IMG/VR virus record: IMGVR_UViG_3300025892_000008
Strand: one strand, 5' to 3'
From: a virus
Taxonomy: Duplodnaviria > Caudoviricetes
DNA length: 64,000 nucleotides
Position numbers and translations under genes: made by a program. This document shows positions 18,241 through 19,364 of the stretch, in pieces. Positions within the stretch are counted from its first letter, which is position 1. Each line of letters starts with the position of its first letter. The notes under the pieces are model-generated. The model saw only the letters and a program-made list of their open reading frames with translations. It was not told where the DNA came from and searched no databases.

Positions 18241-19152
18241 ATGGACGAAAACAAAGAACTACCAAAGGTAGATGTTACAGGGAGTGCTCCAGCGACTAGC
18301 AATGGTGATGCCGCTGTTCAGAGCAGTCCTTTATCTGCCTACTATAGACAACCTAAAATTTACGTAAGTTTACCAAGTAAAGGAAACTTCTACGCACCGG
18401 CCGCACTTGATAAGAGTGAAGACGGAACATATGCTGTGTACAGCATGACAGCCAAAGACGAATTAATGTTTAAAACACCTGATGCATTACTAAGCGGGCA
18501 ATCAACTGTTGCTGTTATTAACAGTTGTATTCCTTCTATTAAAGATCCTTGGCAATTACCTACAATCGATCTAGATGCTATCCTAGTTGCAATTAGAATA
18601 GCCACTTATGGCGAAAACATGGACATTGATACAGAGTGTCCTGCTTGCAAAGAAGAGCAGCGTTATGGATTTGATTTAACAAAATACTTAGAAGAACTTG
18701 CACAGTTTAACTATACAGATACATTTACATCCGGTGAACTTGTTTTCCATATTCGTCCATATACTTACAAAGAGTTCACAAAGAAAACACTTGCAAGAAT
18801 CGAACAAGAAAAAATATTCAATATCATTAATGATAACGAAATGTCCGACGAAGAAAAAGTTGATAGATTTGGAGTTAGTTTTGTAAAATTGACAGAGCTT
18901 ACAGTTGAGTCTGTAGCAGATGTAGTTAGACGAATTGATACTCCGCAAGGTTCAGAAACAGATCCAAAACAGATACGTGATTTTATTCTTAATGCACCAA
19001 AAGAAATTTTTGAAAACTTGCAACAAAGTTTACAAAAGATGAAGCAGCAGTTAGATTTAAAAGTTAAGAGTGCAACCTGTGACAAATGTTCACATCAGTT
19101 TGACATTAACGTTACAATGGACCAAGCAAATTTTTTCGGAGCAAGATCTTAA
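18241..19152 (+). CDS. Baseplate hub/tail assembly chaperone (T4 gp26-like)
   Basis: LPSKG.FY, MTAKDEL.FKTPDALLSG, D.DAILVAIRIATYG, and CPAC / CDKC zinc motifs. Confidence 0.8.
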   Translation: MDENKELPKVDVTGSAPATSNGDAAVQSSPLSAYYRQPKIYVSLPSKGNFYAPAALDKSEDGTYAVYSMTAKDELMFKTPDALLSGQSTVAVINSCIPSIKDPWQLPTIDLDAILVAIRIATYGENMDIDTECPACKEEQRYGFDLTKYLEELAQFNYTDTFTSGELVFHIRPYTYKEFTKKTLARIEQEKIFNIINDNEMSDEEKVDRFGVSFVKLTELTVESVADVVRRIDTPQGSETDPKQIRDFILNAPKEIFENLQQSLQKMKQQLDLKVKSATCDKCSHQFDINVTMDQANFFGARS

Positions 19153-19209
19153 AGTTATCCTTGCCGGAGATCTTGCAAGAAGTAAAAAAATTAGATAATG
19201 AGGCGAGGG
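19128..19209 (+). other. Predicted -1 ribosomal frameshift signal (slippery heptamer plus pseudoknot)
   Basis: In-frame A_AAT_TTT at 19128-19134 overlapping T_TTT_TTC. Stem GCAAGATCT (19141-49) / AGATCTTGC (19168-76). Loop TCCTTGCC can pair with GGCGAGGG (19202-09). The -1 frame is open into 19161..19364. Confidence 0.7.
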
Positions 19210-19364
19210 CGATCAAGAAGGAAGTCTTGAAGATGTGCTGGTATATGCGAGGCCTCAGTTACAGCGAAGGCATGCACCTTGGCAATGAAGAGCGTGAAAT
19301 TGTCGGCGAAATAATTAAAGAAAATTTAGAAACTACCAAAAAAACCCAACTGCCTTTCTTTTAG
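19161..19364 (+). CDS. gp51-like chaperone module, probably the -1 frameshift extension of the upstream gene
   Basis: TTG start with no clear RBS. The WYM.GLSYSE.M.L..EER.IV pattern resembles the short gp51-like proteins that follow gp26 in marine T4-like phages. Confidence 0.65.
   Translation: MPEILQEVKKLDNEARAIKKEVLKMCWYMRGLSYSEGMHLGNEEREIVGEIIKENLETTKKTQLPFF

Follow-up and report, generated by a model that had tools for sequence, protein, structure and literature searches.

The 64,000-nucleotide (nt) stretch of viral DNA described here, IMG/VR virus record IMGVR_UViG_3300025892_000008 (Duplodnaviria; Caudoviricetes), which we refer to as the window, carries a gene for a protein of the phage T4 gp26/gp51 family, and at the 3′ end of this gp26-like gene the -1 frame is open for an extension of 77 amino acids (aa) (Table 1). 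We propose that the gene is decoded in two ways, to give a short form and a -1 frameshifted long form, and that these would act in the manner of the tail assembly chaperones gpG and gpGT of phage λ; comparative sequence analysis leads us to give this explanation as a whole a probability of about 0.8. By its gene content the window comes from an uncultured, marine, T4-related phage: it holds T4-type portal, major head protein and prohead protease genes, together with genes for a gp55-like late sigma factor, gp46/47-like nucleases, a gp5-like hub protein and a gp25-like wedge protein. The nearest cultured relatives are the jumbo myoviruses Atu_ph07, Phosso, PA5oct, RaK2, 121Q, GAP32 and XacN1, at 25–35% protein identity, and many marine metagenomes contain the stretch.

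The gp26-like protein matches Pfam family PF12322 with an E value of 1.7e-20 and 74.1 bits (curated cut-off 24.5), its residues 78–299 aligning with profile positions 36–218 of 219, and is by that score a member of the T4 gp26/gp51 family; the same model also matches T4 gp26 and T4 gp51 themselves. It is assigned to PHROG 150 (baseplate hub), and its AlphaFold2 model has a mean predicted local distance difference test score (pLDDT) of 79.8. When it is aligned with its homologs from ten cultured phages and with T4 gp26, residues C133, C136, C280, C283, F298 and F299 are invariant.

The codons for the last two of these residues form the slippery run. At its 3′ end the 0 frame reads GCA AAT TTT TTC GGA GCA AGA TCT TAA, so that two heptamers, A_AAU_UUU (19128–34) and U_UUU_UUC (19131–37), overlap in the X_XXY_YYZ phase of the 0 frame, and beyond them the -1 frame runs without a stop into a conserved coding region. 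To follow the site among relatives, the homologous locus was taken from ten cultured jumbo phages and 80 IMG/VR contigs. TTTTTTC stands in this phase on the two Phe codons in all 80 IMG/VR relatives (51–96% amino-acid identity), each of which has a 0-frame tail of 3–6 codons and an open -1 frame of 77–78 aa. More distant phages with a -1-frame extension (the ten cultured phages plus Vibrio phage 2.275.O, RsoM2USA, Xoo-sp13 and a 595-kilobase uncultured phage) have an in-phase TTTTTTC in 10 of 14 cases and TTTTTTT in the other four; site and extension occur together in Atu_ph07, Phosso, PA5oct, RaK2, 121Q and GAP32 and likewise in BF, PHA46, Turkey5, Vibrio phage 2.275.O and the uncultured phage. 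The run is lengthened to 7–9 T in XacN1 (L008:2271-2277; L numbers denote our loci), Xoo-sp13 (L097:2028-2034) and RsoM2USA (L093:2283-2291), and transcriptional slippage may be more important there.

Codon choice around the run is equally fixed. The two Phe codons are TTT TTC in 65/65 distinct sequences, although in the rest of these genes only 22% of Phe codons are TTC, and the codon preceding them has T as its third base, again in 65/65 (AAT, GAT, ACT or AGT; C is never found there). An in-phase heptamer kept in all the IMG/VR relatives and in distant phages is more than chance would give. Since A_AAU_UUU occurs in only part of the window's clade, other members having GAT, ACT or AGT ahead of the T run, U_UUU_UUC is the conserved site; slippage at either heptamer would yield the same protein. 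The 0-frame tail differs among relatives in both sequence and length (1 to 11 codons when the distant phages are included), with the stop in the same alignment column as that of the window in 52 of 58 distinct relatives. Finally, the -1 relation is kept in XacN1, GAP32, PHA46 and Atu_ph07, where the annotated ORFs (open reading frames) stand 17–100 nt apart, and so is no by-product of ATGA-type overlaps.

Downstream of the run lies a predicted H-type pseudoknot, which was studied in a gap-free alignment of 58 distinct sequences from the heptamer onward. Its stem 1, which begins 3 nt past U_UUU_UUC and 6 nt past A_AAU_UUU, has 90.6% of its cells paired, with all nine pairs intact in 43 sequences. 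The pairs vary in step: Lys AAG/AAA opposite Ile ATC/ATT gives 42 G-C, 14 A-U and 2 G-U pairs with no mismatch, and Ser/Arg NNC/NNU opposite Leu TTG/TTA gives 19 C-G and 28 U-A. This compensatory variation falls at third codon positions of the -1 frame, the switches being mostly at synonymous sites, and parsimony on a tree of the gp26 part places about 14 independent Watson-Crick double switches in the stem (about 5, 5 and 4 at three pairs), so that the signal is not one inherited change. Stem 2, in which the loop of stem 1 pairs further downstream, can be extended in the window by 3 base pairs (bp; 19154–56 with 19211–13). With the register fixed, 72.8% of the cells of stem 2 are paired, against no more than 58% when the register is slid; the best duplex of the loop with the following 54 nt starts at alignment columns 65–79 in 52/58 sequences, and compensations specific to lineages L015, L080 and L062 lengthen it to 10–12 bp. 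As judged from these alignments, both stems of the predicted pseudoknot are kept through compensatory changes. Strong structures follow the heptamer in Atu_ph07, Phosso and XacN1 (z-scores -6.4, -4.7 and -4.9), and the enterobacterial group has a small CUUCU/AGAAG hairpin formed from the same two peptide-coding segments (LL and PEE). An Rfam scan gave only a chance-level match, to SAM_alpha at 15 bits, where the gathering score is 36.

The -1 frame, which stays open from 19110 to 19364, reads ..KFFRSKILKLSLPEILQE.. at the junction, so that 297 residues of the gp26-like body and the 77 of the extension would make a long form of 374 aa. Its peptide is conserved from the first residue past the slip (FFR.xLL..PEEI..), upstream of any start, and no start codon of the extension is conserved among the relatives compared. 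The ORF listed by the ORF-calling program, 67 aa from 19161 to 19364, begins with TTG, and the 15 nt preceding this codon hold no Shine-Dalgarno motif. Throughout the window's clade the only start-like codons before extension residue 35 are such Leu TTG codons, also without Shine-Dalgarno sequences; the first -1-frame ATG comes at residue 35 or 39 in 40/65 distinct sequences, positions that fall within the first long helix (11–39) of a confident, helical AlphaFold2 model (mean pLDDT 89.7). In PA5oct the extension ORF has no Met along its whole length. The ORF is unannotated in the PA5oct and RaK2 records, most records list the extension as a separate small gene, gene callers place its start at many differing positions (metagenomic protein library), and in none of the public records or gene calls examined is the long form annotated, the extension being omitted or left as an orphan small ORF.

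The first-pass annotation of the window, made from the letters alone, had described most of these elements, and they bear scrutiny well. Both overlapping heptamers are present and in frame; the stem of 9 bp is perfect and covaries; the pairing of its loop over 8 bp, proposed from a single sequence, is supported by the compensations in relatives; the -1 frame does run open into the 67-aa ORF, which has a TTG start and no clear ribosome-binding site; and the heptamer and -1 register, whose conservation had been named as one check to make, are indeed conserved. An adjustment concerns the slip site, which had been given as A_AAU_UUU overlapped by U_UUU_UUC, the second of which is the conserved family site.

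Further evidence comes from lineages in which the extension is joined to the body without slippage. A search of 1.84 billion representative proteins with an extension profile found 435 clusters, and 21 of the top 150 homologs are proteins of 319–351 aa that carry the extension at their C-terminus. All eight of these natural fusions that were scanned have an N-terminal PF12322 domain, and their junction falls at the same Phe (..LDFxxxF-R-x-K-L-I..), in frame and lacking a T run. In 4/4 contexts that reach upstream, the fused gene directly follows a shorter PF12322 gene (276–296 aa) that has no extension, and in the same four (loci L100, L101, L104 and L106) the tandem pair adjoins a tape-measure-like gene, the portal gene also being present in L101 and L104. 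The short paralog lacks the CxxC motifs in the two copies read (L100 and L101), and the fused paralog retains them. Replacement of the slip-site gene by short and long tandem paralogs is strong evidence that the fusion is a functional long product, and the presence of a short paralog before each fused gene indicates that both forms appear to be needed. One contig, L102 (1898–2683), had been a candidate natural fusion through seven T; it was set aside as a probable homopolymer assembly error, its upstream frame also looking broken. The T4-type portal of this paralog lineage (L101, L104) contains an intein (PF14890 and a faint HNH match), which the portal of the window lacks.

A second group, comprising SP-15, LIS04, HSE3, Streptococcus phage GXN1 and Microcystis phage Mel-JY01, has an extension-like ORF of 74–122 aa in the +1 frame of its PF12322 gene, with the motif ..YY.PG.TW..ES M..ER... 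A run of 6–7 T lies at the two Phe codons in SP-15, LIS04 and Mel-JY01, and HSE3 and GXN1 have TTC TTT CGT CCC. Recoding by +1 or by -2 may operate in this group; profile comparison of the window extension with that of SP-15 was not significant.

Taken together, the case for a programmed -1 frameshift in the gp26-like gene is that conservation covers the slip site, its phase and the -1 peptide, that both putative stems are compensated, that no start is conserved, and that the junction occurs in frame elsewhere. On this comparative evidence we regard the frameshift as very probable, and we infer that recoding near the 3′ end yields two nested products, one short and one C-terminally extended.

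The surroundings of the gene bear on what the two products might do. The tape-measure-like gene is the immediate neighbor of the gp26-like gene and, as the first-pass annotation had noted, is transcribed divergently from it; PA5oct, Phosso, RaK2 and the paralog lineage share this arrangement. The PA5oct record carries an electrospray ionization tandem mass spectrometry (ESI-MS/MS) note on the portal and the tape-measure-like neighbor and none on the gp26-like gene (gp336, L003:3001-3855), and the missing note of virion detection fits a non-structural chaperone, though as an indirect hint. Upstream, the T4-type box TATAAATA may be a late promoter; the gp55-like late sigma factor gene lies at 27221–28042 of the window. 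Two ORFs on the other strand converge on the end of the extension, one of 979 aa (19361–22300, -) that overlaps its stop by 4 nt and one of 302 aa (22302–23210, -), neither with a match in Pfam or PHROG, and a single ORF of 4978 aa (38026–52962, +) occupies part of the baseplate/fiber module.

Table 1 Features of the gp26-like locus in the window and of the corresponding loci in relatives
Feature	Position	Strand	Remarks
Portal gene, 565 aa	13778-15475		Behind tape-measure-like gene; Portal_T4 at 5.7e-106
Tape-measure-like gene, 880 aa	15521-18163	-	PHROG tape-measure families, e.g. phrog_794 at 1e-10
Late-promoter-like box, T4-type, TATAAATA	18190-18197	+	Upstream of gp26-like gene; read from sequence
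Ribosome-binding site GGAG of gp26-like gene	18231-34	+	Read from sequence
gp26-like gene, 0 frame, 303-aa short form	18241-19152	+	PF12322 T4_baseplate domain, two CxxC motifs, C-terminal FF
Slippery run A_AAU_UUU_UUC	19128-19137	+	U_UUU_UUC on the invariant FF codons
Extension, -1 frame, 77 aa from the two Phe onward	19131-19364	+	Stop 19362-64; C-terminal domain of the putative 374-aa long form
Putative pseudoknot stem 1, 9 bp, perfect, GCAAGATCT / AGATCTTGC	19141-49 / 19168-76	+	Minimum-free-energy hairpin; covariation
0-frame stop TAA	19150-19152	+	Four codons past the heptamer, directly 3′ of the 5′ arm of stem 1
Putative pseudoknot stem 2, loop UCCUUGCC (19158-65) with GGCGAGGG (19202-09)	19154-19213	+	8 bp, two G-U
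Tandem PF12322 paralogs, marine lineage	L100:820-2744; L101:3135-4996; L104:2605-4532; L106:1959-3790		
Extension-like ORF, +1 frame, SP-15	L094:2134-2359		Equivalents in L095, L109, L110, L111

Can the two forms be likened in function to gpG and gpGT? In the λ model, gpG and the G part of gpGT bind the tape measure protein and T binds the tube protein; the ratio of the two matters, and neither is in the virion (Atkins et al., PMC5009743). We lean toward a role of this kind here because there would be two nested products, because the frameshift is replaced elsewhere by short and long paralogs, because the gene adjoins that of the tape measure, and because relatives have it in the slot between the tube and tape-measure genes. 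The gene order in Bacillus phages SP-15 and HSE3 and Listeria phage LIS04 is sheath, tube, gp26-like, extension, tape measure (the SP-15 record labels the tape-measure gene "putative tail protein"), and in Mel-JY01 the PF12322 gene follows the tube gene, the next large gene being unannotated. Complex prediction with the gp26-like body (residues 27–303) and residues 1–700 of the tape-measure-like protein scored 0.00, which speaks neither for nor against binding.

Several observations weigh against this interpretation, some touching the decoding and others the function. The structure downstream of the slip site covaries, but its geometry is atypical for the conserved heptamer: the 3-nt spacer behind U_UUU_UUC is short, and the usual 5–9 nt fits only the unconserved A_AAU_UUU. 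RNAalifold found no consensus structure on the 58-sequence alignment, after which the named pairs were counted and duplexes computed instead, and the single-sequence fold of the window is unexceptional (z = -1.1), so the case for the pseudoknot rests on covariation and not on energy. In some distant relatives (Atu_ph07, Phosso, Turkey5 and 121Q) an ATG overlaps or adjoins the 0-frame stop, and translational coupling could supplement or replace slipping there. As to function, the gp26-like gene of the window lies outside the tube-to-tape-measure slot; a tube gene was not found in the window, in the nearest record or in the contigs of five large relatives. Searched against the PDB, the model of the gp26-like body gave no match at E ≤ 0.001 and hit no solved tail chaperone, its only matches being "baseplate hub" proteins of other myoviruses and uncharacterized bacterial proteins. 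The fold of the extension is uninformative, since BFVD and PDB-wide searches return generic helical hairpins (e.g. basic helix-loop-helix; Z at most 5.7) and chaperone-named BFVD rows appear only at E > 2. Nor do profile comparisons of the extension with the gp51 tail or with whole gp51 reach significance. The gp26-like protein also matched no Pfam chaperone family, although a missing match is compatible with a relation.

The strongest competing explanation accepts the frameshift and casts both forms as factors for hub assembly, of the T4 gp26/gp51 type, working on a central hub of the gp5/gp27/gp29 type and not in the G/GT manner. The T4 members of PF12322 are indeed described as hub assembly chaperones, and the fold unrelated to solved tail chaperones and the absence of the window gene from the classical slot both favor this view. 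However, the T4 hub includes the tape measure gp29 (Leiman et al. 2010, PMC3004832), so the hub and chaperone roles overlap and are not exclusive; the family does occupy the classical chaperone slot in SP-15, LIS04, HSE3 and Mel-JY01; and a need for a short and a long form, whether through frameshifting, tandem paralogs or the two genes of T4, is G/GT logic. We consider a pure hub-factor role unlikely, but well short of negligible.

Two further possibilities concern how the extension would be made, and both are far less probable. RNA polymerase might stutter on the six T and add one U to some mRNAs. The homopolymeric site, its lengthening to 7–9 T in XacN1, Xoo-sp13, RsoM2USA and Mel-JY01, and the +1-frame extensions beside T runs in SP-15, LIS04 and Mel-JY01, which a simple -1 heptamer does not explain, speak for such slippage. 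Six T is short for efficient polymerase slippage, however; the run is held in exact X_XXY_YYZ phase; and the covarying structure comes after the run, so that it could affect a ribosome there, whereas a polymerase still on the run has not yet transcribed it. In contigs from two metatranscriptome libraries the run is T6, the same as in the DNA; this is only weak evidence, since a contig conceals minor variants and DNA may have been carried over. Polymerase slippage is thus very improbable as the principal source of the long form, although it may be a minor route. Slightly less probable still is that the downstream ORF is translated alone, as a separate protein of about 67 aa, from the TTG at 19161 or by re-initiation after the 0-frame stop: the TTG is there, most public records show a separate small gene, and the relatives with an ATG at the stop may gain something from initiation or coupling, but that cannot account for the window's clade, in which the TTG has no Shine-Dalgarno motif, and independent translation is contradicted by the want of a conserved start or early ATG, by conservation of the peptide right from the slip site, by the Met-less ORF of PA5oct and by natural fusions that join exactly at this junction, and it leaves the in-phase heptamer and the covarying pseudoknot unexplained.

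Under the frameshift explanation, then, most ribosomes would read the 0 frame to its stop and produce the 303-aa short form. A fraction would pause with tRNA-Phe on UUU UUC (19132–37), probably held there by the pseudoknot, move back by one base and read on in the -1 frame as far as 19364, producing the long form with its PF12322 body and 77-aa helical domain. The shared body would chaperone assembly of the neighboring tape measure or hub, and the extension would bring in a further component of the tail, with the tube as the likeliest candidate. Assembly would call for the two forms at a fixed ratio, without either of them being a major protein of the virion. T4 would make the same pair from two genes, 26 for the short form and 51 for the long.

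Should this be true, it would matter beyond the window. The frameshifted tail chaperone is among the most conserved phage recoding events, the G-T frameshift being conserved in long-tailed phages "except T4", which is the standard stated exception (PMC5009743), and gp26 and gp51, recognized for decades as essential factors in hub assembly, still lack a clear mechanism (PMC3004832). A frameshift in the gp26 family, taken with its replacement by short and long paralogs in nature and with the tube-to-tape-measure position of the gene in other myoviruses, would join these two puzzles in a form that is testable in PA5oct, RaK2, Atu_ph07, SP-15 and T4. It would suggest that PF12322 proteins fill the place of the tail assembly chaperones that have been missing from T4-type and many other large myoviruses, each lineage making a short and a long form by interchangeable means, a generalization for which we judge the chances to be even. 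The routes would be a -1 frameshift with a pseudoknot (this phage, RaK2, PA5oct, Atu_ph07 and huge phages), a +1-frame extension (the SP-15, HSE3 and Mel-JY01 groups), tandem paralogs (the marine lineage) and two divergent genes (T4 26 and 51); T4 would cease to be an exception to the G/GT rule, and a mechanistic role could be assigned to gp26 and gp51. A simple annotation rule (a PF12322 match followed by FF encoded in a T run and, after it, an open frame that is shifted) could recover the long form from existing genomes, and the pseudoknot, with its synonymous-site covariation, would be a clean new example of a frameshift stimulator in a bacterial virus. A full-text literature search, from whose coverage most subscription journals are missing, found no published description of frameshifting in gp26-family genes; the mechanism is of a known kind, and what would be new is the protein family, the link to gp26/gp51 and the end of T4 as an exception.

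How far does the likeness to known systems reach? The -1 frameshift conserved among the tail assembly chaperone genes of long-tailed phages, of which λ gpG/gpGT is the example, was reportedly described by Levin in 1993 and by Xu, Hendrix and Duda in 2004, 2013 and 2014 (reviewed in PMC5009743). Like λ G, the gp26-like gene is a small tail-assembly gene with a heptamer near its 3′ end that would give a short and a C-terminally extended product; it adjoins the tape-measure gene, and in some relatives it lies in the tube-to-tape-measure slot; and related lineages indicate a need for both forms. The differences are that neither family nor fold is related (PF12322, carrying two CxxC motifs), that the heptamer is U_UUU_UUC here and G_GGA_AAG in λ, that a covarying H-type pseudoknot follows the heptamer here, and that the gene is divergent from the tape-measure gene. 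Of the proposal in the first-pass annotation that this pair is the G/GT equivalent of its lineage, the nested forms and the tape-measure adjacency stand, and no relation in fold or sequence to known tail assembly chaperones was found; for that reason we file the pair as G/GT-like in its working and not as a G/GT homolog. We infer an equivalence that is well supported rather than demonstrated. Among contractile-tailed phages, P2 (gpE/E+E′) and the Mu-type myoviruses also extend a small tail chaperone by a -1 slip; their gene is described as always lying between the tube and tape-measure genes, in which they differ from the window, and it is not known to be related in sequence to the gp26-like gene.

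The closest comparison is with T4. There gp26 and gp51 are hub assembly chaperones, and gp51 is absent from the particle (Leiman et al. 2010). The short form of the window is in the Pfam family of gp26 and ends at the same FF, which T4 gp26 writes as TTC TTT, with no slippery run and no extension, gene 25 following. T4 gp51 has PF12322 over residues 1–201 (E = 3.9e-52) and then a tail of 48 residues, and at the FF position it reads VF-KLLVNPDEI. The long form here would share this layout, so that, read from the sequences, the parallel in architecture is plain: gp26 corresponds to the short form and gp51 to the predicted long form. The first-pass annotation had called the small ORF gp51-like; the ORF alone is not, and it is the fusion that has the gp51 architecture. 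MAFFT lines up the gp51 tail with the motifs F-R-x-x-LL, PEEI and N.SY..L.NMP..ER..V.K.I.K of the jumbo phage extensions, setting F-K/R-x-LL, P-D/E-E-I and M-x-P-x-ER in register, an alignment that convinces by eye only, and the best profile match of the extension on whole gp51 falls at residues 223–246, in the expected register, with E = 0.09 and a probability below 1%; homology of tail and extension is thus no more than suggested. The two phages differ in that the T4 tail has 48 residues and the extension 77, and in that gp26 and gp51 are, as the first-pass annotation had it, separate genes in T4, transcribed divergently and with no slippery run, whereas here a single gene would supply both forms.

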